Shown: positions 6,211 through 45,582 of the stretch, one piece after another
Position numbering within the stretch: position 1 is the first letter of the stretch
How the letters are laid out: each line of letters opens with the position of its first letter
NCBI GenBank assembly: GCA_032718475.1
Contig: JAUCBJ010005741.1
Location: forward strand, 62,001-126,000
DNA: 64,000 nt
Reading direction: 5' to 3'
Source: Nemertoderma westbladi
Taxonomy: Eukaryota; Animalia; Xenacoelomorpha
Notes under the pieces: generated by a model
Told to the model about the DNA's origin: nothing
What the model saw: the letters and a program-made list of their open reading frames with translations, nothing else
Databases searched by the model: none
Made by a program: the position numbers and the translations under genes

Positions 6211-7351
6211 TGTAAAGGCTTTTGCGTAATTAGCCGGTTATTTTTCCCGTAAAGTACTCTGTAGTTGGTTTACCAGGCATAAAAGGCCGTGTCCTTACTG
6301 TATTGTTGTTTTAGAGGACATAAAAGTAATTTCTTCTGTATGTGTACTTTAGCGGACATAATCCGCAATTTTATGACGCAATAAGCCGGATCCTCTTGAA
6401 ACAGTGTAGATACCATGACGATGGCTAACAGCTGATATTGCCACGTAGAACATCTCTTTGTTCTTTGTTCTCTCTTTGTCCGGTCGACCAATCAGAGCGT
6501 TTTTTGCCTCTGTGTTGGAGATGGTATATAGAAACTAGGGAAGTGAGTCAGTATGTGATTTTTGTCCACAGCCTACAACACCGGCGTGGAACCTCCGTGT
6601 TTCAGTCTTTAGCATCAACATTAGTAGGCTTAATTATAGAACGTATATCCGTTATCTCAGTCACTCATAATTATTCATACCTTAACATTACTGCTTTTGC
6701 TGTCAGTTATTCATTATATTTGTTGATGGAATATTATATTCGGAATACTGATAAACAATCAGACACCCCAATCTTCTTGATATACTAAAGGTTAGATAGA
6801 CCGGATACATATAACGATTGCGACTTACATTAAGTGGTTTGAAGTGAATCTAATGCTATTTTATAGGCCCTACACGTATTGTCTGTTGTTCTCCTTATAT
6901 GTGACTAAAATTAGTGAAGGTCGGCAGATTAGTGTGCAGCATTGTGCAGTATTGTGTATGATTGTGATTGATAACGAAGCATCTCCTAAAGAATGCGCCA
7001 TATACGTGAATCTATAGCCATCCTGTTGTGTCTGGTTTAAGTCATAACTCTGTTTATATATTTAAAGCGCCACGTCCTAAAGGAACTGTTAATATTTCCC
7101 GAAAGTGAATAATATTTGTCAGAGATTATATATACTAAGATCAGTCGAATAATACAGTAGGCCTATCCCGCAATACGATTAGGCTTCCGAATCCAGTCTC
7201 CCGGGTATATCCAGCGGGTGAATGATCGCGCATAGACTGGTTTCGGCTAATGTAGTGTATCAAATATTTGTCGTAGGCTAAAGACTATCTATTATCTAGA
7301 AGACATCCTAATTTGGCAGGTTAAACTGCTAAAGGTCTGAAAGCGCGAACA
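6211..7351 (+). repeat. 5' LTR (1141 bp, TGT...ACA)
   Basis: Matches 23493-24633 apart from about 8 substitutions noticed by eye. Confidence 0.97.
6488..6553 (+). promoter_or_regulatory. Putative LTR core promoter (CCAAT, TATA, Inr)
   Basis: CCAATCAG at 6488, TATATAGAA at 6525 and TCAGT at 6548, in plausible order and spacing. Confidence 0.5.
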
Positions 7352-7366
7352 ATAACGGATATACGT
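7352..7366 (+). other. Primer-binding-site position: non-tRNA, complementary to LTR 6641-6655
   Basis: ATAACGGATATACGT directly abuts the LTR end. Its reverse complement ACGTATATCCGTTAT is at 6641-6655 and 23923-23937. No TGG-starting tRNA PBS is present here. Confidence 0.7.
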
Positions 7367-7694
7367 CTAATTGCAGGGTAGGCAATAAATACAGTTTAAT
7401 ATTGTTCTGGTAAGAACAATAACGGATACTGCTTCTGTATTGCAGTAGGCAATAAAGCTGAAGTACCGGCAACCGGTACCCAGTAGGCCTGACTACCTAA
7501 CCACCCGGACCGGTACCTACAGCAGTACAGGTACAGCAGTATTATTCGATTTTGATAATTATATACCAGTAGGCCTTAATAATTAATCGGGGACTGCAGC
7601 CCTGGTTTTTTATTGAGATTTTACTTATTTCTGTCAGTTTTATTTACTTGTAGGTTAATATTGAGCAGAAGGCGTGTAAGCCTGCTCAGATTGT

Positions 7695-8165
7695 ACAGAT
7701 AATTTGTAGGCTGGACTGTTGTCTGACTGTTGTTAAGTCTGAACGGATTGCAGTGTGTGTAGAGCATCTGTCCGATAAAGTGCTAGTTAGGAACGTAGGG
7801 GCTTCAAGTGCTGTGAGGTAAACCCCCTTTGAAAGAATAAGTCGTACTACTAGGTTAGAACGCATACTAACTAATCATTTCGGAGTCTGCATATACTGTA
7901 GTTTATTTAGGCTTGATAGTAGTCTGCCATCGTTTGGTCTGTACTTTGTTTGTGTAGTCTGTACAGGTAGCGTATAATTCTTATTTAGATAATTCGTAGG
8001 CTGGATAGTTGTCTGGCTGTTGTTAGGTCTGAGGAAATTTCGGTGTGTGTAGAGTGTATGTCCGATAAAGTGCCAGTTGGGAACGTAGTTTGTTTAGGCT
8101 TGATAGTAGTCTGTCAGTATTTGGTCTGGATTTTGTTTGAGTAGTCTGTACACGCGTAGCGTAAT
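7695..8165 (+). repeat. Imperfect direct duplication within the 5' leader of the LTR element
   Basis: 'agataatt.gtaggctgga..gttgtctg.ctgttgtta.gtctga...tccgataaagtgc.agtt.ggaacgtag' at ~7697 and ~7987; 'gtagttt.tttaggcttgatagtagtctg' at ~7898 and ~8085. Confidence 0.75.
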
Positions 8166-8808
8166 ATTTATTATTCAGAGTTTATGCGATTATTCGCAAC
8201 ATTCATTCCCCAAGTTTATTCCTGCAGTAATTGTGCTTGTTATACATACCGTTACAGTTAAACTAACCCCGGTACTACATCAGGGCTGCTCGGCGTAGGT
8301 AAAGACTGGAGATTTTGTGCTTTGGTCACTCCGGCAGATACCATGGTTCTTTTAGCTGTTCAAGTATTTCTAACTACTGATTATTTGTTATATAAGTACT
8401 TGTACCTAATTTAGGGTTTAGTGTACAGTGCTTTCCGAAGGTGATTAGTGTGTAGGCAGTATATTTGTGTTGTAAAGTGGTTAATAGGCACGTTGGTTCT
8501 GGTAGACCGCGGTAATTAACTTCTAGGTAGGAACACTCCGTGATACATAACGTAGTACTTATAGCGATACGGCTATAAGTCGTCAGACGGTGGTATTTTT
8601 CTATCTGGACAACGCAGTATATTTACTACTACTTATTATTTTCAAATACCGTAGTACCCTGTCCGTTGTAATAACCAGATATTCTAACCCTTTGTTAGGC
8701 TGGTTAGTAGACTTCTTGTAAAATTACCCTAAAAATTCGTATTATAAAATTCGTGCTGCCGCGGCAGCAGCAGCGGCAGAGGTAGAAGCGGAAAGAAAGG
8801 CGATAGAA

Positions 8809-11800
8809 GTGGAAAGAAAGGCGTTAGAAGTGGAAAGAAAGGCGGCAGTGGCAGTGGCCGAAGCGGAAAGAAAGGCTGTAGTGGCAGCGGCAGAGGCAGT
8901 GGCAGAAGCAGAACGGAGAGCGGCTGAAGAAACCACCCAATTAGAATTGGAAAACATTCAGGAGAATCAAGACTGCATAAATAAACAGTTAACAGCTAGT
9001 AATATGCAGATGATGAATCGATCTACTCCCAAAAGACAGGGATATACATCATCTGAGGAAGGCGATACCACCGATACTGAAGGCAAAGGAAATAGATCTC
9101 GTCTAAGCAGACGTAGAAGAACATCCCACCGTCAGAAATTGCCTGATTTGCCTCCAGCTGTTAGAAGGCAACTAAATAACACAAACTTAGGTAGTACAGA
9201 ACCCACAGACCAAATAATTAAAATAGAAAGACTCCCTACTATAGTAGATGAGCCTGAAATAATTAGGCCTGTTCCCGAAGCCACCCTTTCGGTGGTAGAG
9301 ACACCTGTACTCCCTGAACCTACCCCTAAATTCCCTCTGCACAGCACTAAGCTACCTGTGCCCAGCAGAACAGCCCATGAGACAATCCATGTTCTGGACT
9401 CCGAGCGAAATATTAATGATTTGTCGCCCGTTGTCCCTCGTCCGCCCGCTACAACGTTGGCGGCTCCCGCTTCGGCGGTCGAGTGGGTGGATGAGAAACG
9501 ACGGGGGATGGATCTCCTGCTCGGGCAGATGCAGGAGACCGTTCAGCAATTCAAGGGCACAGTAAGGGAAAGTAGGTTAGAGTTGCAAGAAGTGCAGCAA
9601 AGAATCGCGTTAGAACGCGATAAATTAGTAAATACACAAAAGGGTATACCACCACCCCCGGTAACAATGTGTCAACCTGTTAGGTCTGAAGTATTTCATG
9701 CGCAAGGTGTGGAGCCTACAAGCATATATACTGCTAGCGAAGTAGAAACTCCTATAGTGAACCCTATTAAGGGTAATTATAGACCTGTTGATAATGATAT
9801 TCCCTATAGACCTGATCATAATCCGAGAAATTTATATACCGATAACTCGATATTAAATAACACGATGGCCCAAGAAAGTTTTATGCGTCAAATGGCTAGA
9901 ACCGAAGCCCGGCAAGCGGTAAAGGTGGGAGAGATAGTCAACTTCAATGGAGATGAGATGAAATGGTTACCTTTTAATGAATATTACAAAGATAACATAC
10001 AGAACTCTGCGCTATCTAATGGAGAGAAACTTAGATTCCTCATCGAGTGCTTGGAACGATCTCCCAAGCTAATGGCGTTAAAGTTTATTGGACATCCAGA
10101 CGGATTAAGACAAGTTTGGGATACACTAAACATCAGGTATGGTAATAGGAATAACATAGCTGGGTATTTGTATGCAAAGTTGGTAGCGCCCCGAAAGTTT
10201 ATTAGCAGCGGGATTATAGAGTTTTCCGATGAGATTCAGGAGATCTGCAGACAATTAGATTGGCTAGGTAAGTCTCATGAGTATCAGAGTGCTATGGTTA
10301 TTAGAGCAGTGGCTTCTACTTTACCGAAGGGTGGAGTAGGTACACGCTGGGACAAGAAAGTGTTATATATGATGGAACAACAACAACGAGACCCTACCAT
10401 GGCTGATCTCATGTCATTCTTGGATGGCGAAGTGAAATTGCAGCTCATAAAGCAGTCCAGAGAGAAGACACCGGAAAACAAGGTAAGTGAGAAACCCGTC
10501 TCTAGGAGAAAGGTAACACCAGTGTGTTATACAGACGATGGCTAAAGCCAGACTTCTCAAGGAGAGGATAGCGGGAAAGACACTGAAAGATCTTATTATG
10601 TCAATAAAACGCCTAAAGACCAGGTAAGTAAATTCAAGTCTCGAACCAATGACAGGAGAGAACAGGTAAGAAAAACTCCTCCTACGTCTCCCAAGAGAAT
10701 TCAGGTGAGAAAGCCCGAAGAAAGAACGAGTGTGCACAATGTTACTCAAAATAAGGTAAGTAACATCAAACCGAAATGTGCGCTATGTGACGGGACCCAC
10801 CGTTTGAATACGTGTGATGAATTCCTGAAGAAATCATTAGCGGAGAGACGGGAAGTCATGTGGGATAAGCGGTTGTGTTATAATTGCCTCAGACAAGGAC
10901 ACCAACGGCGAACCTGTTACTCCGACACAAGGTGTGCAAAGTGCGGTGCGAAACATCATATCTTGTTGCACACTGAATTCGAGCGAAATAGTCCGAGTCA
11001 GGTAAGTGATTCCGAACTACATGTCCAATTCAGTGATGTGAACGACACTGATCAATCTGAGATGGAAGGATTCTATACGGACGAGTTCTCCGACGAAAAC
11101 GAATCCTGTTACATGATAAATACCGCAGTGTATCGAGCACTCACGTATGAAAAAGATACAGACAGCGACCTCACCCTAACTACTTCTGATCGACAACCAT
11201 CTTGGAAAGCACCATCTTCCAATGTAGGAATCCGAGAATTTCCTGTAGTACAGGTAAGGGTTCACGGACCTAAAAGGAGTTATGTAGTGAACGCCCTCCT
11301 TGACTCCGGTAGTACAGGAACATTCATCGACAAAGAACTAGCCGAAGACATTTTTGCTGGACAACCCAAGCTCCGAACTAAGCTAAACATGTCAGGAATT
11401 ATGCAGGTTTGGAAATCTACAGTAATCGCGGATTATTATGTAGGTGCGTTGTCCACCCCCCAGGATGAACTAGGAGAACATAGTATAAGGTCAGTAAAAA
11501 TGGTGGCGATAAAGAACTTCGCTACCACTCAAGTGGAACCTTATAACTGGGATGAGGACGATTTCACCCAGCAGCTGGAAATACCTAGACTCGACACCGA
11601 TTACCCTGGAGTGCAAATACTCATCGGTCAAAACGCGCATGAAGCGCTCGAGACATTGGAGAAACGGCCCGCTCAACCGCAACCACTACAAGCTTATGCG
11701 GGAAGAACTAGAGTGGGTTGGTACTTTACTGGCCCTTCCCGTAGAACTCTCATGGAAAGATTACCGAAAGACCAGGTATGTCAAGTGAGAGAATGGGAAG

Positions 11801-14267
11801 TCGAGAGCAGTGAGTTAGACGATCCAACTGAGGGAACACCATACTCCTCAGATAATGACGATGTCCACCAACTTTTCGATGAGGAGAATGCCATCGATCT
11901 CCTTAAGGAAAACGAGACTTGGCAAAACCAAGTGAATTTATGTCAACTCCTTCTTCCATCAGAGCGAGACGACTATAATGACGAGCTTAATGACGTCATT
12001 GAACGTTATAATGCCAAGACTCGGGACGAACACGCCGTACGATTCTTTACTCAAGAGGCTGTAGAGCCCAATTCCTATGATAAGGCCCTATCGGTAGAGG
12101 AAGAAAGAGCCAAGCAAATCCAAGAGACAACTACACGTTTTCTTAAAGATCAAGGTAGATATGAGATCGGTCTACCTTTCCGAAAGCGAGAACCAAAGTT
12201 CGTAAACAACAGACCCTTGGCGGAGAAAAGAATTGCTCAACTACATCGACGCCTTACGGCAAATTCTTCAGCTAAAGAAATGTATCAAACGCAGTTGAAG
12301 AAGTTTATTAGCAAGGGATATGCGGAGCTAGTACCGGAAGAAACACCTATAACTGAGAGAACGTATTATTTAACTCACCATTACGTTCCCAAACCCGGTA
12401 AACCACATGAGGTACGAGTGGTGTTTGACGGCTCCGCCCTCTATATGGGCCAATCCCTTAATTCTGAATTGCTACCCGGACCCAACTTACTCCAATCATT
12501 GTTGGGAATACTTTTAAGATTAAGACAATATTCCATTGCTTTCGCCTCAGATATAGAAGGCATGTTCTTACAAGTCAAAGCGCTGGATAGGGATCGAGAT
12601 AGCCTACGATTTCTGTGGTGGCCTGAAGGAGACCTCAACCAGAAACCGGTGGAGTACTGGATGACCATCCAAGCTTTTGGGATAATCTCGAGCCCTTCAA
12701 ACGCCTGTTCCGTGGTGCGCACCACTGCGGATGACAACCGAGACGCCTTCTCTAAAGAGGTGATTGACAACATTAAGCGGGATATATACATGGACGACAA
12801 TCTAAAGTCCCTTCCATCAGTCGAAGAAGCCATCGATGTCGCTAAAGGAACGGTAGAGTGCTTAAAAAGAGGTGGATTTCGATTAACTAAATTCACCAGC
12901 AACTCCCGTGAGTTTCTGGAGTCGATCCCGGTAGAAGATCGAGGAGCAAAAGACCTGGATCTAATAAAAGATGATCTCCCAGAAACTAAGACCCTTGGTT
13001 TGAAATGGGACACCGAAAGAGATATCCTGTTTTTCCAACTAAAACAGCGAGATAATCCAGTTCGGACTAAACGGATTTGTTTAAGTATCCTGAGCACTTA
13101 TTTCGATCCATTGGGATTTATTAGCCCAGTTATATTGATTGCTCGGAGTTTAGTACAACAAATGTGGCTTGAAAACCACTCATGGGACGATCCACTTAAG
13201 GGGGAGTTGTTAAAGAAGTGGATGAAATGGGAAGATTCTCTACCAGCCATCGAGAACTTTATAATTTCCCGTTCATATTTTGGTCATGTTCTCCCTACGT
13301 ATTCCTATCAACTCCATGTGTTTGGAGACGCCAGCGATATGGGAATAGGTATAGTAGCCTACCTAAGGGTGGAAACTCCGGACGGAATCAAAGTCGCCTT
13401 GGTTACTTCTAAGGCATTGATAAACAATAAGTTGAAAGTTCCTCGAGCGGAGTTAAAAGCGGCTCTATACGCTACAGCCATCGGCCGGAATGTAACAGAA
13501 CAGATCGACTATCCACTGGAGAAAACTGTCTATTGGACCGACGCTTTACTCGTGTTGGAGTATATAACCAATGAAGTCTGTCAGTTCAGCGTCTTCGTTA
13601 CCAACAGAGTAGCCATTATACTCAGTCGCACAACAATGGATCAATGGAGACATTGCCCCGGAACGATTAATCCAGCAGACATCGCCTCCAGGGGAGCAAC
13701 TCCACAAGAACTGGTAGACACTCCAGACTGGTTAGGTGGACCCGACTTCCTATACAAAGAAGAAGAAGAATGGCCTCCTCATCTTACTACAGCGGAGATT
13801 AGACAGGCCAAGGAAGCGGAGAAAGTCAAACCTAAAACTCGGGCGAGTAAATCGAAGTTATTCAAACCCATGGTAGATCTGTCTGTACTACATATTTCCG
13901 GAGACGACGCTTTGGATCAGAAACCCACAGCCACAAATAAACTTGTTGTGGAAATCCGTGAGAAGGATTGGAAATCTGGAATACCAGACGTCTCGCAAGG
14001 ACTCTCACCTCTTCTGCAGAGAGCGATACATCACTACAGTTCCTGGAATCGGCTCTGTAAGGCCGTTACATATTTAAAGAGATGTTTTCACCATCACTAC
14101 TCCGGGATGAAGGCCAAAGGTGATACCGCTCCAATAACATCAGTGCAGGTCCATGTTATTAAAGATCTTCCCAAATATAAGATATCCGACAGGTTTCTGA
14201 AGGAGAAGATCAGTTATCAGGAACATGACGAAACCAACAAGCAGATGCTGAGACTCCTGCAATGCTA
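8809..14267 (+). pseudogene. BEL/Pao gag-pol, 5' part (Gag, 3 Zn knuckles, aspartic protease, RT, RNase H), with one in-frame TAA at 10543-10545
   Basis: ORFs 8809-10545 and 10705-14295 share a frame and are separated only by that TAA. Motifs: FNGDEMKW/LSNGEKLRFL/LNIRYG (Pao Gag), CALC/CYNC/CAKC knuckles, LLDSGS, RVVFDGS, YMDD, HVFGDAS, YWTD, NPADIASRG. Confidence 0.93.
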
Positions 14268-15799
14268 CCGCATCTTTAAGGCCAGTGTCCTTTAAGATGC
14301 GTCTCAAGAAAGTCATAGGCTGTCCACCATGCTTATTCACTCCATGAGGCTGCCAAAGTACAAGATTATGCACTGGCTGATCCTCACGGCGAAAGCAATG
14401 TCCTGCAAAGCGGAGGCGATTTTGTTCTAGTGTCAAGCTTGGGGGAACCAATGAGACACCTCCAATGTTATATAGTGTCTGGTTGGAGATGTGTGCATTG
14501 TACTTGACACAATGAACCCGGCGTAGCATTCTTGTGAATGTGCCATCCAGAGATTTGGTGTCCTCAGCAGTTAGAGCCCAGCATGGACTCCCGTAGAGGA
14601 GTACTGGAACTACTGCTGCTCTAAATAATCGGACCTTAAGTTTCCGATTAATTCTCGGTGACTTCCAAATCCTGGAAAGCCTATTCAAGGCTGCCCATGC
14701 CTTTCCCTTACGTATTCGAAGGTCCTCACCTGACTTCCGGATCCATGATCCCAGGTAACAGAAGTCGTCCACATGCTCAAGCATACCATCCTTTGAGCTT
14801 ATGCTCATCCGATCAGAGACTTGCTGAGGACTTTCAAAGTTAACTGTCAGAATTTTGGTCTTTCTGGAGTTAATAAAAAGACCAACACTAGAAGCAGCAT
14901 GTTCTAATGAGCTGAGGAGCCGTTGGGCTCCCTCTAATGATTCTGAGAGTACTCCTAAGTCATCAGCAAAGTCTAGATCAGTTAAGTACTTGGCAGGATT
15001 TCCTCGACTTCTGGAGCCAGTAGGTGGAGTTATCATCACCCCATCATCATTATAATGATCTAAGGACATGCGTAGAACATAGTCAACCACAATAATGAAC
15101 AAGAATGGTGCAAGTGTGTCTCCTTGGAGGACGCCCCATAACACTTCAAATGGTTCTGTGTCACCGTCAACAGTAGACACAAATGTTGTCGAACCATCGT
15201 ATACTGATCTGATTGCTGCAATAATTTCATCAGGAATCCCATATAATGAATGTATGCTGAACATACGTGAGCGAGAGACTGAATCAAAGGCCTTGAAGAA
15301 GTCAACAAAGATAACAGCCAGATGCCTGTCTTTCTTTTTTGATAACTCTTCAATTATCCTTCTAAGTGCCAAAATGGGCTCCATGGTCCCACGACCTTTA
15401 CGGAACCCATTCTGATTTCCACGGAGCAGTCTCTCAATGGGATCCCTGATGCGATTTAATAGAATCCTATTGTATAGCTTTGCAGCAATCGAGATCAATG
15501 AGATTCCCCGAAAAGAACCATAGAGTGTTAGGTTGCCCTTCTTGGGAACTGGCACAAACTTATTTGTTTTCATTTCTTGTGGGACTCTTGTTGTTCGGTA
15601 CATGTCTACTATGATGGGATAGATGAGCTTTAAACACTCAGGTATTTTAAAGACCTCAGGGGGAACACCATCTACTCCACTGGCACGATTGGTCTTAATG
15701 CTCTTTGCAGCAGCCTTCACTTCTGCAAAAGAGATATCGCCAATGGGAATATCTGGGAGTACAGACTCAGACACTTTTACTTCTATAAAGTTATGGAAA
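14268..15799 (-). mobile_element. RTE-clade non-LTR retrotransposon fragment (intact RT frame, truncated at both ends) inserted antisense into pol
   Basis: ORF 14140-15855(-) has NQNGFRKGR, FVDFFKAFDSV, GVLQGDTLAPFLF, LDFADD, FCYLGS and RLRFAGHC. It is flanked by a 325-bp duplication of pol (13943-14267 = 15800-16124). Confidence 0.92.
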
Positions 15800-17529
15800 T
15801 TGTTGTGGAAATCCGTGAGAAGGATTGGAAATCTGGAATACCAGACGTCTCGCAAGGACTCTCACCTCTTCTGCAGAGAGCGATACATCACTACAGTTCC
15901 TGGAATCGGCTCTGTAAGGCCGTTACATATTTAAAGAGATGTTTTCACCATCACTACTCCGGGATGAAGGCCAAAGGTGATACCGCTCCAATAACATCAG
16001 TGCAGGTCCATGTTATTAAAGATCTTCCCAAATATAAGATATCCGACAGGTTTCTGAAGGAGAAGATCAGTTATCAGGAACATGACGAAACCAACAAGCA
16101 GATGCTGAGACTCCTGCAATGCTATGAGGATTCCGATAAGTATTTCCTGTTGTTGAGAAATCCACAGATGCGCTTAAGGGATCGTTTCTCTAGCACAATG
16201 ATAGATGGGTTAATACGTGTTGGAGGAAGATTAACGAATGCTCCATTATCCTTTGACACTAAGTTCCCCATACTCATTAGAAATCTTGAAATACAAGTCA
16301 AGATGATTGTAGATGTTCACAGCAAACTTTATCATGCTGGTAGAGAACGAGTTCTTAGCGAAATTCGAACTCGCTATTATTTTTATAAACCCCGTAGAGC
16401 TCTGAACCAAGTTCTTAGGAACTGCATACCCTGTAGGAAAGCATTCAGTAGGCCTTTAACACAGCGAGAGGCAGAATTACCTAGGGAACGAATAAGCTTC
16501 TATGAACCACCCTTTACTAATACCGGTGTAGATTTATTTGGCCCTATTGAAGTATATCGTGCTAGGACTATAGTCAAGAGATGGTGTGTAATCTTTGTTT
16601 GTATGACTTGTAGAGCTATCCATCTCGATATGGTGAACGATTTATCTACCAACAGCTTTCTATTAAGCTTACGACGACAGATCGCTCGCTTTGGCACTAG
16701 TAACACGATGAGATCTGATAAGGGAACAAACTTCATTGGTGCCAACAATGAAATCAAAGCTTACGTCAAAGATTGGAACCAAAGACAGGTGGACGATCAG
16801 CTACGAGTAACAGCGTCTAGCTGGACCTTCAACGCCGCCGACGCCCCTTGGTGGGGATGAAGTTGGGAGAGATTAATAAGAAGTGTGAAGACCGCATTTC
16901 ACTTTATAGTGCCTTGCCGCGCGTATCTCACCGACGAACTTTTGCGGACGTTAATGGAGGAAATCGCCGCCTATCTCAACGAGAGACCGCTTATGCCAGT
17001 CTCATCGAGTCCCGATTCCCTGGAAGCGCTAACACCCGCGCATTTCCTACTGAAGAAACCTGTAGCCATGCTCCCACAATCGGAAATCACAGACGGAGAC
17101 GAATACTGCCGGCAAACTTGGCAACTCATGCAGTTGTTATCCCGTCGTTTCGCTGACCATTTCGAAAAACATTATCTGCCCACGCTACAACTTCGAACTA
17201 AGTGGTTTGCGCAGCAAGAAAACGTCAGCGCTGGAGACATGGTTCTTATTGTGGATGTAGATCTTCCACGTAAGCGGTGGCAGACAGGTCGTATCATCGA
17301 GACTCACATCTCGGATGACGGTTTGGTGCGATCGGTAGAACTCGTCGTCATGCGACGTAACTTCAAGAAACCGGGAATTGTCTTCGAGACGCAGCAGCTC
17401 AATCGCCCAGTTGGTTGCTTATGTTTACTGGAAAGAGACAGAGAACTCTCCGGAAACTATGGGAGGCAAGATACTCTTCCCACGACCACCTCCCTAATCC
17501 AACAAACATCTAGGGACTCCCCAACTTAA
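15800..17529 (+). pseudogene. BEL/Pao pol, 3' part (integrase and C-terminal domain), with an in-frame TGA at 16858-16860
   Basis: RVGGRL, H..H..CIPC zinc-binding region, GVDLFGP, SDKGTNF, APWWG*SWERLIRSVK (expected GG), LTPAHFL, and a RTKW...GDMVLI...W.TGRI...DGLVR tail. All in the same frame as upstream pol. Confidence 0.92.
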
Positions 17530-18077
17530 CAATGGCTGGAGTGGGTGTATGACTATATTTGTATTTGTTTTATTCTTTTATATTTATGTATATATTATTA
17601 TGTAATTTTATTATAATCGTTTTCTTTAATTTTACTTAGTAGAATGTTATTTTAGCGATTATTTAGTAGATTAGTGCAATATGTATTCGCGTTTATTACT
17701 TAATTACTTATATATTATATATTTAGTGCGACGGCGAGAAATAATTCTTTTTCTCTTTCCTTACTGTCCGTATTACATTACAAATACGTAACTACAGTAA
17801 GATGAAATATCCGTACTTATTAAAGTACAATAAAGCCACTACTATATTCAAGTATTATTGGTAGGCAGAGTATTAGGAATGCAAAGTTCAGATCCTCGTG
17901 TCTCGGCTAAACCAAGCTCTGGGTAGACCTTGGAAACGACTTGCCTCTTCACACTGACATTGCTTCGTGCGATATTGCTCTCATACCGTATATTAAATAA
18001 TACATATAGTAGCGTGATGTCCCTTTAACAGTAGCGTATAACGCAAAATAAATCTGTTAAACCCTTTGACCATCTGC

Positions 18078-18378
18078 AATTCTAGTCGATTAAGATATCG
18101 TGGCACCCACCGATATACTTGAAAGACAAAATTCTAGAATCAGTGGTTAACGTCCCCAGACAAGTTCTGGAATAAACTGGTGCCCATCCTAAATATTAAT
18201 TATTAATATTTACAAAATCTGTCAAATATCAGATCCTTTAAAATTCTAGTCGATTAAGATATCGTAGCACTTACCGATACTCTTAAAAGGACAAAATTCC
18301 TAGAATCAAGGATCCCAGTCCCCAGACACGTTCTGGAATAAAATTGTGTCTATTTTAATATTAAATAATAAAATTTAC
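18078..18378 (+). repeat. Two diverged copies (164-bp spacing) of a hairpin-forming unit in the pol-ORF2 spacer
   Basis: aattctagtcgattaagatatcgt.gcac..accgata..ctt.aa.gacaaaatt.ctagaatca...ccaga.a.gttctggaataaa at 18078 and 18242. Confidence 0.85.
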
Positions 18379-19120
18379 GGGAATAAATTTAAATTCATAT
18401 ATTTCAATGAATTTAATAAATTGTCATTTTATACAATTTATAACATTCCCAAAATTCCATTAATTAATAGATCATGGGAGCGGAGATTCACTCTATTAAG
18501 TGTATTTGTGTGCGAGAATCTCCAATATAGTCAATAGCCGATAAAATTTATAAAATCATATATAGAGAGGATATTGACAATTAAAGAATTACTATTAAAT
18601 AGCATCCCAGATCTGTATGCATGAGAATTACCCTAATTCTACCGCTAGCTTTCCATAATGTCACCATGGCAACAACCACGCTAGAATTAGAAGTGAGTTA
18701 AAGAACAATAGAAGGCTTGCCCCATTGAATAGCATAGGGAATAAATAGCGCACTGCTAGTATCCAAGGATACATAATAAATACAGTGACATTCTGGAAGG
18801 TACTGACTAACGGACAAATGGCCCGAATGTGTGCGGTTTATGGCAGTTGTGTTGAATTTGTGCGTTTGTAGGTGAATGTTACTACTAAGGTGTGTTTACA
18901 GTAGCGAGTCGCAATTGTGAAAGTAGCCCTAACTCTCCAGAAAGAACCTGTAGTACATCTAAGCCTTTGGGACGGACAGTGGAGTGACTTGTGCCGGTTA
19001 TTGTTGTCGTTGTGTAGCTACATCGTTGGCGAAAGCACAGCGACGACGGTACATCGGCGCTGAGGATCTTACACTGTCCGGGGGCAAAAGAGGGGTAGGC
19101 AGCGACGCCCGCTAGCCTAA

Positions 19121-19128
19121 TATATAAA
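19121..19128 (+). promoter_or_regulatory. TATA-like box upstream of ORF2 (possible internal promoter)
   Basis: TATATAAA 40 bp before the ATG at 19161, preceded by a GC-richer stretch (~18960-19115). Confidence 0.3.
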
Positions 19129-19160
19129 CTCATTATAATATTGATAAACTCATAGCAGAT

Positions 19161-22100
19161 ATGACTGAGTTGATAGAAGATGATCTCGGTATTAGGGAGC
19201 GATATACTCTACCTTTACAAGCGTTTGTCGATAGCTTGATACGCGGCGACGCTGATCCAACTACTACGGAGGATGATGGTCGTTATATCGAACCGCCAAT
19301 GTCCCAGGAGCAACTTACGCGTGAATTGGATTATAGAAAGTTCACCGCTCGCTATACGCATCGTAATGGTACGTATATGGACTTCTTAACTACTGGCCAT
19401 CCTATCGATTTACACGATACGGACGATGTAGACACCGAAAGGGAAATGGTTTTATTTAGATATCATACCCAGCGGAGTCGGAACGACAAACCGAGAATAG
19501 AACACGAGAACTCTATTCGAAACAAACTCGAAAGGGAAGACGTTGAAGAGCCGGATAAACGCAGCGACTTCAACGATTATCTGGAATTCCTGAGAGAGAC
19601 ATATCTCAATATTGCCAGTCAACAAAATCTCGAAACTCGATATCCCCAAGGTATACATCATGATCCTATGATAGAACTCAAACGACTCTATTTCACTATG
19701 ATGTATCTTACCGCCGATCGACCGCTACCTGTCGTCCCAGATAGCTTCGAACAGATGGAGGAATATTGTAAAACTGGAGAACAATCACCCGCGTTTCCCC
19801 TGCAGGACGTGCGTCTGTGGTATTACTGCGACGAATGCCCTAGACCCAATCAGCAAACGGAAAGACATAAACATCCGCAGAGACATTGCGCTAAACACAG
19901 TTTTACCCGATATACTTATGGGAGTTTCGAGCGAAACCTGTTCGACGTATCCCCCTCGAACGGCTCGACTCAAACGATCCTTGAACAAACCAATGATCAG
20001 AGTTCCGGAATACTCGGTCAGACCTCCTCATTCCTCAGTTAGACCTCAGACTCTTGATCCTAATAGTATCACGGATCCTCCCGAACTGTACTCACTGTTC
20101 AAAGATCTAGTGTTACCCGAACAGTTGATCGGTGGCACCCCGGTGGTAGGCTCACTAGATATTCGCCAACCCTACCTAGCTGGATTGGGACGCGGTCATC
20201 TAATATCGCCGTTTAACCCATACAACCGTCGCGGCTTCACCTCGATCCAACCCGTTACGGAAGTCGAAGAGAGCGTCATACGAAACGCGCTAGACGCTAT
20301 TCGGCAGAAAATCGGAAAGGGAACTTACGATTGTTTGGAGAAACGTAAATTACAACAACAAGTCCAAGCGGTGAAGGAATTAGCTTTACCCAGTTCGATA
20401 GAGAAACACAAAATCTCGAGGAGGACATCGAACGTGGACGAACCTACTCTTTACAAGAGTTCCTAGATGAGCGTCTACAACAACAAGCGGAGGAAAATCA
20501 GCTCGAGGAGAGACATATAGAACTGGATGAGAGAGAAGAAGCAGCTTTAGCTCAACCCGAAGCTCAAATCCTTATGACGGATCTCTACTCTAAAACCATC
20601 CTTCATCCCTCGATGGTTCCCCATTTCGGAGACAAACTCTTTGCGACGGCACAACCACAACCGGTTGATATCAACCTAAGATCTCGAGATCTTATCGCTG
20701 ACGCTCCCATGTTACAGCGTCCTCCCATCGAAGCCGCTCGTGTCGAGGGTATACTCGTTGAACCTCCGGACAATAGAGCGGATCTTGTCCGTCGCATGGT
20801 ACACGATGTTAACATATGCGCTAGACCTTTACCGGACTCGTTTTATGGGATCAAAGATCACCCTTATTACGTTAACCTAACACAATATTACATGGTAAAA
20901 CCGGAAGATCCTACACATAGTCTGAGGTTTTTGCCACTCATAAATCCTCTCGATCTTGTCGAACTCGAACAACTGCATAAACATCTGGATCAGTTAGTTA
21001 AAGTAAACTCATTTCGAAAACCATATAATGTTTCCAGAATAGAGAAAGAAACAATACCTCCGTATAATCTTGATGGATTCATCAAAACTCGTTTAGTACA
21101 CTGGAATCTTGACGTGTTATTCGAGGAGGAAAGAATACAACGATATGGAGATGTGGAAACATATACCACACAATATTTAAAGTATAGAGACCTACCTAAT
21201 GCTAGCGAATGAGCTACCTTGTGGCATCCTGTGGGAATGACTCTCGAAAACGCCACTAAAGAGTGGAATGAGACTCTTAACGTTATCGAGATGTATGGAG
21301 TTGTCACCTACGACAACGAAGGTAGCGTTCCGGTTGGAGAACTGGGAACTACGCGGATGATACACATACGAGGACTCGCTGGTTCTACCCACGTATTTAC
21401 TCGAGCGTGTTCCGATGTGATTGATTATTCTTTTGAAACTCTTACTGAGACCCAAAAGAAACTCCGACATGGACAATTCGAACTCGCGCAGCGTTATGTC
21501 ACCGACACCGAGCGCAAACCGGCCATGGGTATCGATGGATCGATGTTACCCCAACCCGTGCTCGAGATGTTGTTTAACGAAAGAATCCTTAAAATCGGCT
21601 CGGCTGTTTATGGAGATCTACAAAACGACTTTCGGAATATGGAAAACATTCCATACCCTTTCGTTGATACTCAGCTGATTGCTCCCTGGGCAGAAGGCCG
21701 AGGTTTCTTCCGCACTATGTATGCCAATACACCCAGCGGCATTACTAAAGTACAACGAACCTCCATTGGACATCTTGCCTTTCAAGAATACGGATGGAAT
21801 TTCAAGGTTGGAAATCCTATAAATTACCAACAAGTATATGGAGATCATTATTCTCGTTTATACTTTGATGGACCATTGACCGCACCTGGCGCCGTGTATA
21901 GCTTTATGAGTGTTCCACTTCGTCCCTCCTTAGCTATATACACGATATTTGAAAACGCAGCACTTGCCGGTTGGCTAGCCGATGTGTGCAGTCGTACCAT
22001 ACGCGCGCATCCATTAATACTTGGAACCAAACTCGCCAAGTTAGATGAACACAATAAATTCATCCGCTTCGAATGTTTCAGGCGCTTTCTGACTCCGTTC

Positions 22101-23414
22101 CGTAACGTTGATAGTCAGTTCAAGGACCGCGCTCTGACCAAACTCAGCCTAAGAGACTCAGCTGCGGAGAAGCTAAACAGCGCGGGATTTGCTCTCTTTC
22201 AGGACGTTTGTATACAGAACTTACATTCATCTGTTATACAAAGACCCCGAATACCCACAGGTTATTCTGTCGTGGAAGTTCAGACAGTGGGTCCGCTTGC
22301 GGAGACAGCCGCACCTACCTCAGCTATGCAATTGGAAGACGAACCAATATGCTTAGAATCTGAAGCGATCCAGCCTACAGCGCCCCGGAGCAGCGATAAC
22401 GACTACGTCTTAGAGTGGTATCAAGGTCCACAATGTCTCACCGCACACGATTATCGACACGCTAACTATGTTTCTCGAAAACGTTGTCGATTATGCGCAT
22501 CAAGAGACCATTTCACCCCTATGGACTCAGACGTACCCTGCTCCTATTTCCACGAACAACCGATGATGGAGATATATTGTGCGTATTGCAGACTTAATAA
22601 CTCTCATATTTTTGCAGTCTGCCCCCAATTTATGACTCAATGCCACCACTGTCAACTTAAAGGACATGCCAGTTATAATTGCCCCTTTAATCGCGATTTA
22701 GAGAGCGTAGATGAGATGATTACCCTGCGCTACATCCGAGCTTGGGAAGCGAACGCGGATTTACATTGTGAGTCCCGCCATCGCTACTACCCTGGACGCT
22801 CTTACGAGGGAGTTTACGCGTTTCATCCTTATTTATTCGCGTCTGTGGAACAAAAAACACGCACACCGAGTTACGAACTAATGAAGCGTGTTGGTGAGTG
22901 TATTTCCACCAAATTTGTTCGAAAATACCTTAGGAACGTCAATCCTAACGATATTACTTCATACCATTTGATCAATTACATCTGTCAAGACCCTGAGTAT
23001 GGCGATTTATTTATCAACTCGTACCCTGAGTTACAGGAAGTATCTCGACGGCCCTATGAATATCGAGCCCGAGAACGCGAGCTGGAAAGAACCATTAAAC
23101 CAAGGAAGTTTCTCACCACTCACGGTCCGCCTACCGCTGTTGTCCAGACGACCCGTCAAGGACCCATAGGAGCTGCTGTCCTAAGACGCGCCCTAAAGGC
23201 CGTTAGACCTCGCTCCACTGAAGTTGATATCGATCAACCAGGTACCTCAACCGGCGGATACACCGATCGTAATTCTACACCTTCTGATGCAATTGTATTG
23301 CACCCTTCACCCAGGAGTTACAGCCCTCCTAGTAAAGTGGCTCGCCCCAAAGAGAAAAGGACTCTTGCTAGCCTCAAAAAACTGCGTAAACGCCGTCCGC
23401 GTAAGAAAGACTAA
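19161..23414 (+). pseudogene. Accessory ORF2 of the LTR element: putative DEDDy 3'-5' exonuclease + CCHC zinc-knuckle protein (~1400 aa reconstructed)
   Basis: ORFs starting at 19161, 20574 and 21219 share one frame, bridged by 19918-20466 (frameshifts at ~19900-20040 and ~20388) and one TGA at 21210. Exo motifs: VVTYDNEG, LPQPVLEMLFNERILKIGSAVYGD, FVDTQ, SIGHLA, PLRPSLAIYTIFE. Knuckles: CRLC..H..C, CAYC..H..C, CHHCQLKGHASYNC. Confidence 0.75.
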
Positions 23415-23483
23415 CTGTTTAGAGTATTTTTATATTTTAGAAACTGTGATTTGTTATATTTTATAGACTAAAATCCCATTTTC

Positions 23484-23492
23484 TGGGAGCGG
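23484..23492 (+). other. Polypurine-tract-like plus-strand primer site
   Basis: tGGGAGCGG lies immediately before the TGT of the 3' LTR. Confidence 0.55.
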
Positions 23493-24633
23493 TGTAAAGG
23501 CTTTTGCGTAATTAGCCGGTTATTTTTCCCGTAAAGTACTCTGTAGTGGGTTTACCAGGCATAAAAGGCCGTGTCCTTACTGTATTGTTGTTTTAGAGGA
23601 CATAAAAGTAATTTCTTCTGTATGTGTACTTTAGCGGACATAATCCGCAATTTTATGACGCAATAAGCCGGATCCTCTGGAAACAGTGTAGATACCATGA
23701 CGACGGCTAACAGCTGATATTGCCACGTAGAACATCTCTTTGTTCTTTGTTCTCTCTTTGTCCGGTCGACCAATCAGAGCGTTTTTTGCCTCTGTGTTGG
23801 AGATGGTATATAGAAACTAGGGAAGTGAGTCAGTATGTGATTTTTGTCCACAGCCTACAACACCGGCGTGGAACCTCCGTGTTTCAGTCTTTAGCATCAA
23901 CATTAGTAGGCTTAATTATAGAACGTATATCCGTTATCTCAGTCACTCATAATTATTCATACCTTAACATTACTGCTTTTGCTGTCAGTTATTCATTATA
24001 TTTGTTGATGGAATATTATATTCGGAATACTGATAAACAATCAGACACCCCAATCTTCTTGATATACTAAAGGTTAGAGAGACCGGATACATATAACGAT
24101 TGCGACTTACATTAAGTGGTTTGAAGTGAATCTAATGCTATTTTATAGGCCCTACACATATTGTCTGTTGTTCTCCTTATATGTGACTAAAATTAGTGAA
24201 GGTCGGCAGATTAGTGTGCAGCATTGTGCAGTATTGTGTATGATTGTCATTGATAACGAAGCATCTCCTAAAGAATGCGCCATATACGTGAATCTATAGC
24301 CATCCCGTTGTGTCTGGTTTAAGTCATAACTCTGTTTATATATTTAAAGCGCCACGTCCTAAAGGAACTGTTAATATTTCCCGAAAGTGAATAATATTTG
24401 TCAGAGATTATATATACTAAGATCAGTCGAATAATACAGTAGGCCTATCCCGCAATACGATTAGGCTTCCGAATCCAGTCTCCCGGGTATATCCAGCGGG
24501 TGAATGATCGCGCATAGACTGGTTTCGGCTAATGTAGTGTATCAAATATTTGTCGTAGGCTAAAGACTATCTATTATCTAGAAGACATCCTAATTGGGCA
24601 GGTTAAACTGCTAAAGGTCTGAAAGCGCGAACA
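23493..24633 (+). repeat. 3' LTR (1141 bp)
   Basis: Direct repeat of 6211-7351, followed by the TSD ACCTG. Confidence 0.97.
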
Positions 24634-27600
24634 ACCTGTGTGCCGACCGCAACCACGATAACATGTGTGCGGACCGCTAGCTAAAATGGTATCCCGTGTG
24701 CCCAATGCTACTATGGTAACCCGTGTGCCCAATGCTACTACGGTAACCCGTGTGCCGACTGGTACCACGGTTACCTATGTGCCAACCGCTACCATGGTAA
24801 CCTATGTGCCGACTGCTACTGTGTGCCGACCGTTACCATGGTAACCTGTGTGCCAACCGCTAGTGTGTGCTGACTGCTACCACGGTAACCTATGTGCCGA
24901 CTGCTACTGTGTGCCGACGGCTATTAGGGTAACCTGTGTGCCGACCGCTACCATGGTAACTCGTGTGTCGACCGGCGGTAACCTGTGTGCCAACCGTTAC
25001 CACGGTGACCTGTGTGCCGAACGCTACCACAGTAACCTGTGTGCCGACCGCTACCATGATAACCCATGTGCCGACCCAGGGTAACCCATGTGCCGACTGC
25101 TACCACAGTAACCTATGTGCTGACCGCTACTGATGCCAACCGCTACCACGGTAACCTGTGTGCCGACCGCTACCACAGGAACCTATGTGTTGACTGCTAC
25201 TGTGTGCCGACCCCTACCACAGTAACTCGTGTGCCGACCCACCACGGTAACCTGTGTGCCGACCATAGTACCCTGTGTGCCGACCGCTACCATGATAACC
25301 CATGTGCCGACCCACGGTAACCTGTGTGCCGACTGCTACCACAGTAACCTATGTGTCGACCGCTACTGTGTGTCGACTGCTACCACAGTAACTCGTGTGC
25401 CGATCAACCATGGTAACCTGTGTGCCGACCATGGTACCCTGTGTGCCGACCGCTACCACGGCAACCTGTGTGCTGACTGCTACCACGGTAACCCATGTGC
25501 CAACCCACGGTAACCCATGTGCTGACCCACGGTAACCTGTGTGCCGACCGCTACTGATGCCAACCGCTACCATATGGTAACTCGTGTACCGACCGACGGT
25601 AACCTGTGTGCCGACTGCTACTGTGTGCTGACTGCTACCACGGTAACCTATGTGCCGACTGCTACTTTGTGCCGACTGCTACCATGGTAAACTGTGTGCC
25701 AACCGCTAGTGTGTGCCGACTGCTACCACGGTAACCTATGTGCCGACTGCTACTGTGTGCCGACCGTTACCAGGGTAACCTGTGTGCCGACCGCTACCAC
25801 GGTAACCCGTGTGTCGACTGGCGGTAACCTGTGTGCCAACCGCTACCACGGTAAACTGTGTGCCTACCACTACCACGGTAACCCGTGTGCCGACCGCTAC
25901 CACGGTAACCTATGTGCCGACCGCTACCACGGTAACCTGTGTGCCAACCGCAACCAAGGTAACATGTGTGCGGACCGCTACCACGGTAACCTGTGTGCCG
26001 ACCCACGGTAACCTGTGTGCCGACCGCAACCACGGTAAACTGTGTGCCTACCACTACCACGGTAACCCGTGTGCCGACCGCTACCATGGTAACCTATGTG
26101 CCGACCGCTACCACGGTAACCTGTGTGTACCGCAACCACAGTAACATGTGTGCGGACCGCTAGCTACAATGGTAACCCGTGTGCCGACCACCACGGTAAC
26201 CCGTGTGCCGAATGCTACCACGGTAACCCGTGTGCCGACTGGTACCACGGTTACCTATGTGCCAACCGCTACCATGGTAACCTGCGTTCCGACCGCTACT
26301 GTGTGCTGACTGCTACCACGGTAACCTATGTACTGACTGCTACTGTGTGCCGCTCGCTACCATGGTAACCTGTGTGCCAACCGCTAGTGTGTGCCGACTG
26401 CTACCACGGTAACCTATGTGCCGACTGCTACTGTGTGCCGACCGCTACCAGGGTAACCTGTGTGCCGACCGCTACCATTGTAACTCGTGTGTCGACCGGC
26501 GGTAACCTGTGTGCCAACCGCTACCACGGTAACCTCTGTGCCGAACGCTACCACAGTAACCTGTGTGCCGACCGCTACCATGATAACCCATGTGCCGACC
26601 CAGGGTAACCCATGTACGACCCACGGTAACCTGTGTGCCGACTGCTACCACAGTATCCTATGTGCTGACCGCTACTGATGCCAACCGCTACCACAGTAAC
26701 CTGTGTGCCGACTGCTACCACAGTAACCTATGTGTCGACTGCTACTGTGTGCCGACCGCTACCACAGTAACTCGTGTGCCGACCCACCACGGTAACCTGT
26801 GTGCCGACCATGGTACCCTGTGAGCAGACCCCTACCATGATACCCCATGTGCCGACCCTGGGTAACCCATGTGCCGACCCACGGTAACCTGTGTGCCGAC
26901 TGCTACCACAGTAACCTATGTGTCGACCGCTACTGTGTGTCGACTGCTACCACAGTAACTCGTGTGCCGACCCTGGGTAACCCTTGAGCCGACCACTGTA
27001 ACCTGTGTGCCGACCGCTACCACGGTAACCTGTGTGCCGACCGCAACCATGGTAACCTGTGTGCCAACCGCTAGTGCGTGCCGACTGCTACCACGGTAAC
27101 CTATATGCCGACTGCTACTGTGTGCCGACCGCTACCAGGGTAACCTGTGTGCCGACCGCTACCACGGTAACCCGTGTGTCGACCGGCGGTAACCTGTGTG
27201 CCAACCGCTACCACGGTAACCCGTGTACCGACCGCTACCACGGTAACCTGTGTGCCGACAAAAGGTAACCTGTGTGCCGACCGCTACCACGGTAACCTGT
27301 GTGCCGACCCACGGTAACCTGTGTGCCGACCGCAACCACGGTAAACTGTGTGCCTACCACTACCACGGTAACCCGTGTGCCGACCGCTACCACGGTAACC
27401 TATGTGCCGACCGCTACGACGGTAACCTGTGTGCGGACCGCTAGCTAAAATGGTATCCCGTGTGCCGACCGCTACGACGGTAACCTGTGTGCCAACCGCA
27501 ACGACGGTAACATGTGTGCGGACCGCTAGCTACATTGGTAACCCATGTGCCGACCACCACGGTAACCCGTGTGCCGAATGCTACCACGGTAACCCGTGTG

Positions 27601-30073
27601 CCGACTGGTAACACGGTTACCTATGTGCCAACCGCTACCATGGTAACCTGTGTGCCGACCGCTACTGTGTGATGACTGCTACCACGGTAACCTATGTGCC
27701 GACTGCTACTGTGTGCCGACCGCTACCAGGGTAACCTGTGTGCCAACCGCTAGTGTGTGACGACTGCTACTACGGTAACCTATGTGCCGACTGCTACTGT
27801 TTGCCGACCGAACCACGGTAACCCGTGTGCCGACCCACAACCCGTGTGCCGACCCACAGTAACCTGTGTGCCAACCGCAACCACGGTAACATGTGTGCGG
27901 ACCGCTAGCTACATTGGTAACCCGTGTGCCGACCACCACGGTAACCCGTGTGCCGAATGCTACCACGGTAACCCGTGTGCCGACTGGTAACACGGTTACC
28001 TATGTGCCAACCGCTACCATGGTAACCTGTGTGCCGACCGCTACTGTGTGCTGACTGCTACCACGGTAACCTATGTGCCGACTGCTACTGTGTGCCGACC
28101 GCTACCATGGTAACCTGTGTGCCAACCGCTAGTGTGTGCCGACTGCTACTACGGTAACCTATGTGCCGACCATTACTGTGTGCCAACCGCTACCATGGTA
28201 ACCTGTGTGCCGACCGCTACGGAGTGCCGACCGCTACCATGGTAACCTGTGTGTTGACCACTACTGTGTGTAGACCGCTCCCACGGTAACTTGTGTGCCG
28301 ACCGATGGTAAGCTGTGTGCCAACCGCTACCGCGTTAACCTGTGTGCTGACCGCTACCACAGTAACCCGTGTGCCGACCCACAGTAATCTGTGCGCCGAC
28401 TGCTACCATTGTAACCTATGTGCCGACCGCTACTGTGTGCCAACCACTACCACGGTAACCTGTCTGCCGACCACTCCTGAGTGCCGACCGCTACCATGGT
28501 AACCTGTGTGCCGACGACTATTGAGTGCCGACCGCTACCATGGTAACCTGTGTGTCGACCACTACTGTGTGCCGACTGCTACCACAGTAACCTGTGTGCC
28601 GATCGCTACTGTGTACGGACTGCTACCATGGTAACCTGTGTGCCGACCGCTACTGTGTGCCAACCACTACCACGGTAACCTGTGTGCCGACAACTACTGA
28701 GTGCCGACCGCTACCATGGTAACCTGTGTGTCGACCACTACTGGGTGCCGACTGCTACCACGGTAACATGTCTGCCGACCACCCCTGAGTGCCGACCGCT
28801 ACCATGGTAACCTGTGTGCCGACGACTATTGAGTGCCGACCGCTACCATGGTAACCTGTGTGTCGACCACTACTGTGTGCCGACTGCTACCACGGTAACC
28901 TGTGTGCCGATCGCTACTGTGTACGGACTGCTACCATGGTAACCTGTGTGCCGACCGCTACTGTGTGCCAACCACAACCACGGTAACCTGTGTGCCGACC
29001 ACTACTGAGTGCCGACCGCTACCATGGTAACCTGTGTGTCGACCACTACTGGGTGCCGACTGCTACCACGGTAACCTGTGTGCCGACCGCTACTGTGTGC
29101 TGACTGCTACCACGGTAACCTATGTGCCGACTGCTACTGTGTGCCGACCGCTACCATGGTAACCTGTGTGCCAACCGCTAGTGTGTGCCGACTGCTACTA
29201 CGGTAACCTATGTGCCGACCATTACTGTGTGCCAACCGCTACCATGGTAACCTGTGTGCCGACCGCTACGGAGTGCCGACCGCTCCATGGTAACCTGTGT
29301 GTTGACCACTACTGTGTGCAGACCGCTCCCACGGTAACTTGTGTGCCGACCGATGGTAAGCTGTGTGCCAACCGCTACCACGTTAACCTGTGTGCTGACC
29401 GCTACCACAGTAACCCGTGTGCCGACCCACAGTAATCTGTGTGCCGACTGCTACCATTGTAACCTATGTGCCGACCGCTACTGTGTGCCAACCACTACCA
29501 CGGTAACCTGTCTGCCGACCACTCCTGAGTGCCGACCGCTACCATGGTAACCTGTGTGCCGACGACTATTGAGTGCCGACCGCTACCATGGTAACCTGTG
29601 TGTCGACCACTACTGTGTGCCGACTGCTACCACGGTAACCTGTGTGCCGATCGCTACTGTGTACGGACTGCTACCATGGTAACCTGTGTGCCGACCGCTA
29701 CTGTGTGCCAACCACTACCACGGTAACCTGTGTGCCGACCACTACTGAGTGCCGACCGCTACCATGGTAACCTGTGTGTCGACCACTACTGGGTGCCGAC
29801 TGCTACCACGGTAACCTGTGTGCCGATCGCTACTGTGTACCGACTGCTACCATGGTAACCTGTGTGCCGACCGCTACTGTGTGCCAACCACTACCACGGT
29901 AACCTGTGTGCCGACCACTACTGAGTGCCGACCACTACCACGGTAACCTGTATGCCGACCGCAACTGTGTGCCGACCGCTACCACGGTAACCTATGTGCT
30001 GACCACTACCACAGTAACCTGTGTGCCGACCGCTACCATGGTAACCTATGTGCCGACTGCTACCACGGTAACC
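24634..30073. repeat. 27-bp satellite, main part (~5.4 kb), with length variants and higher-order duplications
   Basis: tgtgtgccgaccgctaccacggtaacc-type units. Variant blocks recur, e.g. at 28293 and 29341 (1048-bp spacing). Confidence 0.95.
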
Positions 30074-45470: not shown

Positions 45471-45582
45471 AGACTTTAACTCTTTACTTATCTTTGAAAG
45501 ACATACTTTAGAGTACATGCCACCAAATATTTATCTCTAAGTTAACAGAAACAAAAGGTCAGAAAGTCTTCTGGAGTGTTAA

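Follow-up and report, generated by a model that had tools for sequence, protein, structure and literature searches.

What does a BEL/Pao retrotransposon carry in the place where an envelope gene may stand? The question is raised by a 64,000-nucleotide stretch of the Nemertoderma westbladi genome (GenBank assembly GCA_032718475.1, contig JAUCBJ010005741.1, positions 62,001 to 126,000 of the forward strand), hereafter called the window, in which a long terminal repeat (LTR) element of this group spans 6211-24633 (18,423 bp). An extra coding region is found at 19161-23414 on the same strand as pol, between the end of the integrase at 17529 and the start of the 3′ LTR at 23493, just where the initial annotation had placed it; it lies before the polypurine tract (PPT) and has no terminal repeats of its own. 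That annotation, made from the letters alone, proposed that the region encodes a DEDDy-type 3′-5′ exonuclease with zinc knuckles and not env. Our profile comparisons bear out this part of the proposal, the fold being unsupported by AlphaFold, and indicate that a domain of the RNase D/DEDDy type is very probably present. The gene containing it appears to be under purifying selection across copies of the element, and we are fairly sure that it is a maintained accessory gene.

The exonuclease domain

The last frame of the extra coding region (21213-23414) is unbroken, with the first in-frame ATG at 21237 giving an open reading frame (ORF) of 725 codons (21219 is a TTG). All the exonuclease motifs quoted in the initial annotation are present at their places in this frame, namely Asp at 21312 and Glu at 21318 (ExoI), Asp at 21615 (ExoII), DTQ at 21660 and the ExoIII-like Y-x3-E at 21939/21951. 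A canonical ExoIII reads Y-x3-D; with Glu245 in place of the last Asp the domain is a D-E-D-E variant and not a canonical member. On searching 1.84 billion proteins with phmmer only two matches were obtained, P0001 (E=3.3e-7) and P0002 (E=2.6e-4), in both of which an exonuclease-like N-terminal part is followed by a zinc-knuckle module. In the exonuclease region P0001 is 30% identical; its D-x-E is canonical, and its fourth acidic residue, too, is a Glu (Y-x3-E). A literature search on DEDDy activity with Glu at this position gave nothing usable.

In NCBIfam the domain matched TIGR01388 (RNase D, E=0.0031, for the residues around ExoII) and PRK10829 (E=0.02). When 151 bacterial genomes were searched blindly with a three-row profile, 25 matches at E<=0.5 were obtained, of which 21, including the best 15, are RNase D. 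It may be noted that an earlier RNase D profile set holding these 21 matches was dropped as circular, and an independent set of 20 sequences picked by PF01612 alone was used instead. Against this independent profile the window domain scored 16.5 bits, the maximum in 2000 shuffles being 3.1 (0 of 2000 reach the score), and the ORF came first among the 249 ORFs of the window (E=2.7e-4, the next having 1.8). When the window and P0001 sequences were aligned together to the RNase D profile by HHalign, the local comparison gave E=3.5e-6 over 47 columns and the global one a score of 22.6 (maximum 8.6 in 60 column shuffles), in a register that places D32-x-E34 on ExoI, D133 on ExoII, DTQ on DTQ and Y241-x3-E245 on Y-x3-D. 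For the window domain the Atlas features favoured PF01612 (0.92, 25 of 30 matches, 164 features in common), with three unnamed fungal clusters ranking above it; for P0001 they gave as leads a euglenozoan cluster with PF01612 and zf-CCHC (0.86) and an EXD1-like cluster (0.77). The profile likeness to RNase D is weak, above the controls and below all curated cut-offs. A bacterial WRN-like profile of 15 sequences gave 3.2 bits, a score reached by 2 of 1000 shuffles, and did not bring the ORF into the top four of the window. Of the earlier assignment to the WRN-exo/EXD1/EXD2/Mut-7/Egalitarian group the DEDDy part stands, and in the tests made, which lacked eukaryotic WRN, EXD1, EXD2, Mut-7 and Rrp6, the nearest family appears to be RNase D rather than the WRN type. 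The PHROGs search gave nothing useful.

Selection and other copies of the gene

Short contigs of 80-100% identity cover the whole region in four runs, none of those listed reaching from one end of it to the other. We listed the 40 best-supported of about 2100 differences over the whole stretch, and 28 of these fall in the extra coding region. Here 19 of the 28 listed variants are silent as against a fraction of 0.33 expected for transitions (p=2e-4); for the last ORF the figure is 9 of 13 (p=0.009). The exonuclease domain itself has just one of the 28, so that the selection signal is not separate for the domain. Also, in all four runs contigs were found that join across deletions of 2.5-2.8 kb removing the exonuclease (20522-23252 in three of the four runs and 19528-22334 in three of the four). 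As such deletion copies exist, an element can do without the gene in cis, which fits action in trans.

Frames and layout of the extra coding region

The initial annotation joined four pieces into a single frame of about 1400 amino acids. In this copy that frame does not exist as such: it is interrupted at three points, by frame switches within 19702-20042 and within 20349-20466 and by the stop codon 21210-21212. The three upstream pieces gave no Pfam match below E=0.5 and no BLASTP match to related ORFs, and they look coding because 10 of the 15 listed variants in their main frame are silent (0.33 expected, p=0.009). Three contigs of other copies across about 20320-20510 each have one gap relative to the window, as expected if the frame break there is particular to this copy, and the stop at 21210 is crossed by three contigs of other copies, compared there for gaps and showing none. 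The roughly 680 upstream codons may belong to one protein with the exonuclease. The exonuclease may also have an ORF of its own from the ATG at 21237, since P0001 and P0002 start a mere 60 residues or so ahead of ExoI. Immediately upstream of the ATG at 19161, a CTAAT resembling a branch point and AG dinucleotides could provide a splice acceptor.

The absence of a transmembrane segment was upheld, with a maximal 19-residue Kyte-Doolittle mean of 1.19 over all four pieces (no dedicated signal-peptide predictor was used), and neither the hydrophobic fusion peptide and membrane anchor of env nor an env match in Pfam was found in the extra coding region. The G+C content at third codon positions (GC3) is 0.435 in the extra ORF and 0.437 in pol, which fits long residence in the element. 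The C-terminal tail is basic, as the initial annotation had it, and may be a nuclear localization signal (NLS).

The knuckle module and its relatives

Downstream of the domain the initial annotation had described three Cys/His clusters, of which the third is a canonical CCHC knuckle, and these patterns were read again as C-x2-C-x4-H-x9-C (22485-22541), C-x2-C-x5-H-x4-C (22578-22622) and CX2CX4HX4C (22641-22682). The module together with its tail is common to five proteins besides the window protein. In our alignment A4 (7 module copies from 6 proteins) there are 13 invariant columns, nine of them Cys, His or Gly of the knuckles and the remaining the E, A, R and G of the tail. A profile of A4 matches the knuckles of retroviral nucleocapsid (HIV NC, E=4.9e-5), Air2 and Lin28, and weakly those of the trypanosome RNase D TbRND (7c45, E=0.054). 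From these comparisons the combination of an RNase D-like domain with the triple-knuckle module appears to belong to a protein family that is small and so far undescribed.

In a scan of metagenomes 141 stretches came up as candidates and 4 were confirmed, the P0002 contig among them; scanning with the single ORF confirmed 0 of 47, and a scan of viral contigs 0 of 38. Word-indexed protein searches gave nothing new, and as one of them missed even P0001 and P0002 their blanks say little. The contig of P0002 (L001, 124-2025) has two copies of the knuckle-and-tail module, separated by 585 bp, and ahead of them a degenerate part that resembles an exonuclease. In L003 a BEL/Pao pol with 29% identity to that of the window is followed, 1.7 kb on and on the same strand, by an ORF with the module. 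Taken at first to prove a second carrier among BEL/Pao elements, L003 has been downgraded, since the ORF has a GC3 of 0.86 against 0.46 in the neighbouring pol and the contig ends 18 bases past the ORF, before any LTR; its repetition of the pol-ORF layout is suggestive only. The ORFs of L003 (5423-8212) and L004 (615-3329) have about 900 residues each, are 25% identical over 778 columns and are high in GC3; their other flanking domains have no Pfam match. In L002 a decayed knuckle module is present downstream of gypsy-type RNase H remnants (198-868 and 1747-2241; RT_RNaseH_2, E=7.2e-6), hinting that the module may also occur near non-BEL elements. As P0002 is degenerate and no exonuclease is seen in L003 and L004, the nuclease would be dispensable in these relatives.

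Comparison with known systems

Among the BEL/Pao elements known to carry env is Atlas virus of Ancylostoma. In such elements the extra ORF has the same place, and the window ORF differs in having no hydrophobic membrane segment and no likeness to a glycoprotein. The closest parallel that we found belongs to Juno and Vesta, which are gypsy-like. The likeness lies in a position after pol in the env place, an RNase D-like DEDDy domain, no transmembrane segment and one Asp changed to Glu. The window differs in its BEL/Pao host and in having the fourth residue changed (D-E-D-E), as against DEED; also three CCHC-type knuckles with their conserved tail, a basic end and, possibly, about 680 N-terminal residues go beyond the rotifer proteins, which were compared by their published description. 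Rodriguez, Kenefick and Arkhipova (2017; PMC5408684) described these DEDDy ORF3s in the bdelloid rotifer Juno, Vesta and Athena/Terminon elements, with a DEED motif, no transmembrane segment and activity left untested, and the main text never mentions BEL or Pao. The account is repeated in two reviews (PMC5718144 and PMC6431247), and a third (PMC6338049) counts a DnaQ-like exonuclease among the known accessory domains of LTR elements. The novelty claimed at first for a non-env exonuclease ORF was therefore overrated, and holds to the extent that no DEDDy or exonuclease ORF was found reported for BEL/Pao or Belpaoviridae in a literature search that left most subscription papers, Repbase and GyDB outside. 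PMC5603734, taken up as a possible report of a BEL/Pao exonuclease, appears to be unrelated.

TbRND (Gao et al. 2021, PMC7797062) has CCHC fingers that bind RNA beside the RNase D domain. Both proteins thus have an RNase D-type domain and then several CCHC fingers. TbRND is an enzyme of the cell, located in the mitochondrion, and its four fingers follow a linker of 28 residues, whereas the window protein has three clusters after about 160 residues, plus the conserved tail. PDB searches gave no significant match to the TbRND exonuclease domain, and the common architecture may be convergent. With bacterial RNase D (TIGR01388) the domain has ExoI, ExoII, DTQ and the P-L-x6-Y-x3-acid form of ExoIII in register, and it differs in that no HRDC was detected, about 30 extra residues follow the third strand and Glu takes the place of the last Asp. 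The eukaryotic Rrp6/EXOSC10 enzymes are comparable systems of the RNase D type.

With this finding the exonuclease cargo known from Terminons and LTR elements of rotifers is seen in the BEL/Pao group as well, and such a carrier supports the idea of an accessory-gene pool common to unrelated retroelements. It also offers a testable case, with an unbroken 725-codon ORF, a multi-copy family, natural deletion variants and the module in five other proteins.

Proposed function and alternatives

Tentatively, and with a little less than even confidence, we propose that this third gene, kept under purifying selection and encoding an RNase D-like domain with knuckles, makes a trans-acting RNA trimmer that blunts host silencing or surveillance. 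ORFs in the env position are usually made from a spliced or internal transcript, and expression here would presumably follow that route. The basic tail, common to P0001, suggests the nucleus, and import could take place through it. By analogy with TbRND the knuckles would hold single-stranded RNA and feed its 3′ end to the nuclease, catalysis would proceed with Glu at the fourth acidic position, the targets may be host small RNAs or their precursors, and the product would act in trans against host RNA silencing or surveillance. To the catalytic activity of the domain we give an even chance, and that the protein counters silencing rather than processes the RNA of its own element is, in our judgement, evenly balanced. 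Should host small RNAs be its substrate, the protein would be a rare case of an enzyme with which an animal retrotransposon opposes silencing; if dead or self-processing, it would be a modest addition to a known theme.

Several results weigh against the proposal. The Pfam and AlphaFold checks put forward in the initial annotation did not go in its favour, as neither the window ORF nor its domain alone has a Pfam exonuclease match and the models are unusable (pLDDT, the predicted local distance difference test, of 31.7 for the single ORF and 34.1 for the domain of P0001 modelled from three rows). No nuclease came out of the sequence searches in PDB. Globally, HHalign gives a probability of only 19%, the significant match to RNase D comes mainly from the 47 or so columns around ExoII, and the ExoI register taken alone is not significant (p=0.27), being recovered by E-INS-i and misplaced by L-INS-i. 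The last catalytic Asp is Glu, and P0002 lacks the ExoI Glu and apparently ExoIII, its score with the RNase D profile being reached by 69 of 2000 shuffles. In L003 and L004 the knuckle module is kept and the exonuclease is not detectable. The 28 variants are a best-supported subset of about 2100, and Rodriguez et al. saw no clear link between DEDDy ORF3 and copy number (PMC5408684).

The same gene might instead encode an active enzyme for the element's own replication, which trims the 3′ end of the genomic RNA, the primer or the cDNA in the particle; we regard this as rather unlikely. RNase D enzymes do process the 3′ ends of structured RNAs and 3′-end processing was proposed for the rotifer ORF3s by Rodriguez et al. 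(PMC5408684). The knuckles resemble retroviral nucleocapsid fingers, and the missing TGG after the 5′ LTR could mean an unusual primer. However, BEL/Pao elements generally replicate without such a gene, the module has a low score (7.8 bits) with the knuckles in the gag of its own element, and the NLS-like basic tail of the window protein and of P0001 would fit the nucleus better than the particle. A weakened or dead nuclease serving as RNA-binding scaffold or decoy, comparable to EXD1 and Maelstrom and with the knuckle module as the working part, is a reading of similarly low probability. It is favoured by the Glu that the window protein and P0001 alike have for the fourth Asp, by the further degeneration of P0002 and the module without exonuclease in L003 and L004, and by the role of inactive DEDD derivatives in the biogenesis of Piwi-interacting RNAs (piRNAs; PMC5408684). 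Yet the four acidic residues and the Tyr are kept in two proteins that are only 30% identical, the acidic substitute suggests that metal binding is kept, and the rotifer ORF3s, also with an Asp-to-Glu change (DEED), are regarded as possibly active (PMC5408684).

We consider it very improbable that the region rides along passively, or as a second element inside the BEL/Pao element, and brings it no benefit. Such an origin would agree with the deletion derivatives without the gene, with a PPT-like run and TG at 17538-17547, as if an older LTR had begun there, and with the GC3 mismatch between ORF and pol in L003, whose neighbourhood may be accidental. It is opposed by the position of the ORF within LTRs that are 99.3% identical, before the PPT, on the same strand and without terminal repeats of its own, by a GC3 equal to that of pol and by the excess of silent variants (p=2e-4). 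The trans-acting trimmer may also be cast more widely, as an undescribed family (the triple-knuckle module and tail with an optional D-E-D-E RNase D domain) that circulates among BEL/Pao and other invertebrate retroelements and destroys or mis-trims piRNAs; we consider this wider form quite unlikely.

The BEL/Pao element and the state of this copy

The coordinates of the features are given in Table 1. Membership of the BEL/Pao group follows from the Pfam domains, in the order protease, reverse transcriptase (RT), RNase H and integrase (DUF1759, aspartic protease, Peptidase_A17, Integrase_H2C2 and DUF5641; PF05380 with E=2.9e-36 and PF13650 with E=0.0022 in pol), and the LTR pair with TG...CA ends, the PPT and the 5-bp ACCTG duplication are present. 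It may be noted that ACCTG on both sides of the element is also part of a 27-bp satellite unit, so that the target duplication is weak evidence alone. The insertion site is a GC-rich array of this satellite, which runs on at 5745-6210 and 24634-30073. The LTRs differ at 8 of 1141 bases; the insertion is recent and the element young. This copy is dead: its gag-pol reading frame contains stops at 10543 and 16858, and it has taken up a 1.5-kb insertion of the type of long interspersed nuclear elements (LINE).

Table 1. Positions of the element's parts in the window, with the predicted domains of the extra coding region
Feature	Position	Strand	Remarks
5′ LTR	6211..7351	+	1141 bp, TG...CA; ACCTG precedes at 6206-6210
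gag N-terminal frame with DUF1759	8722..10545	+	PF03564, E=3e-10; in-frame stop at end
gag knuckles, aspartic protease, RT region, Pao-type RNase H region	10546..14267	+	Pfam
LINE-type (non-LTR) RT fragment	14268..15796	-	Inserted in pol; RVT_1, E=4.8e-28; DUF6451
Integrase (H2C2 finger, core, DUF5641)	16125..17529	+	Stop inside at 16858-16860
Spacer, AT-rich (GC 0.35), 1.6 kb	17530..19160		164-bp-period duplication at 18078-18378
Upstream coding region, three pieces (19161-20042, 19702-20466, 20349-21212)	19161..21212	+	Ends in stop
RNase D-like DEDDy 3′-5′ exonuclease domain (predicted)	21261..21990	+	Putative site D32, E34, D133, Y241, E245 (counted from 21219)
Three Cys/His clusters	22485..22682	+	zf-CCHC_3, E=0.028
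Conserved tail of knuckle module	22683..22880	+	Invariant E96, A99, R108, G117 (alignment A4)
Basic C-terminal tail, presumed NLS-like	23330..23414	+	P0001 also ends in a basic run
PPT, short, GGGAGCGG	23485..23492	+	Directly before 3′ LTR
3′ LTR	23493..24633	+	1141 bp, TG...CA; ACCTG then at 24634-24638

The LINE-type RT fragment is foreign to the BEL/Pao element proper. It is flanked by a 328-bp duplication (13940-14267 and 15797-16124, with 1 mismatch), unusually long for an insertion site, and related copies of about 83-87% are present near 44249-44762 and 58314-58513. In the spacer a second copy of the PPT octamer is found at 18476-18483. This copy and the purine run at 17538-17547, which stands directly after the integrase stop, are possibly relics of an older 3′ end. 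No TGG primer-binding site was found after the 5′ LTR, where ATAACGG is present instead. A 43-bp stretch at 7347-7389, starting in the end of the LTR, recurs at 7414-7456, there with TGG before it, and further short duplications are present at 7697-8179.

Other features of the window

Scans for Rfam families, tRNAs and bacterial promoters gave nothing relevant. On the minus strand at 39906-63998 there is a host gene with large exons, two ankyrin blocks and a KH domain, which we take to be Mask/ANKHD1-like. Opposite to it and within its span, the plus strand at 52097-54805 has a long coding-like tandem repeat rich in Thr, Ser and Glu, with a fragment of a fibrinogen C-terminal domain (PF00147, E=2.4e-6) after it. 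The ankyrin-KH gene and the fibrinogen fragment mark the host as an animal. At 45568-48957 a 36-bp repeat is present in 94 copies with 94% match, and several of its frames are open for 200-860 codons.

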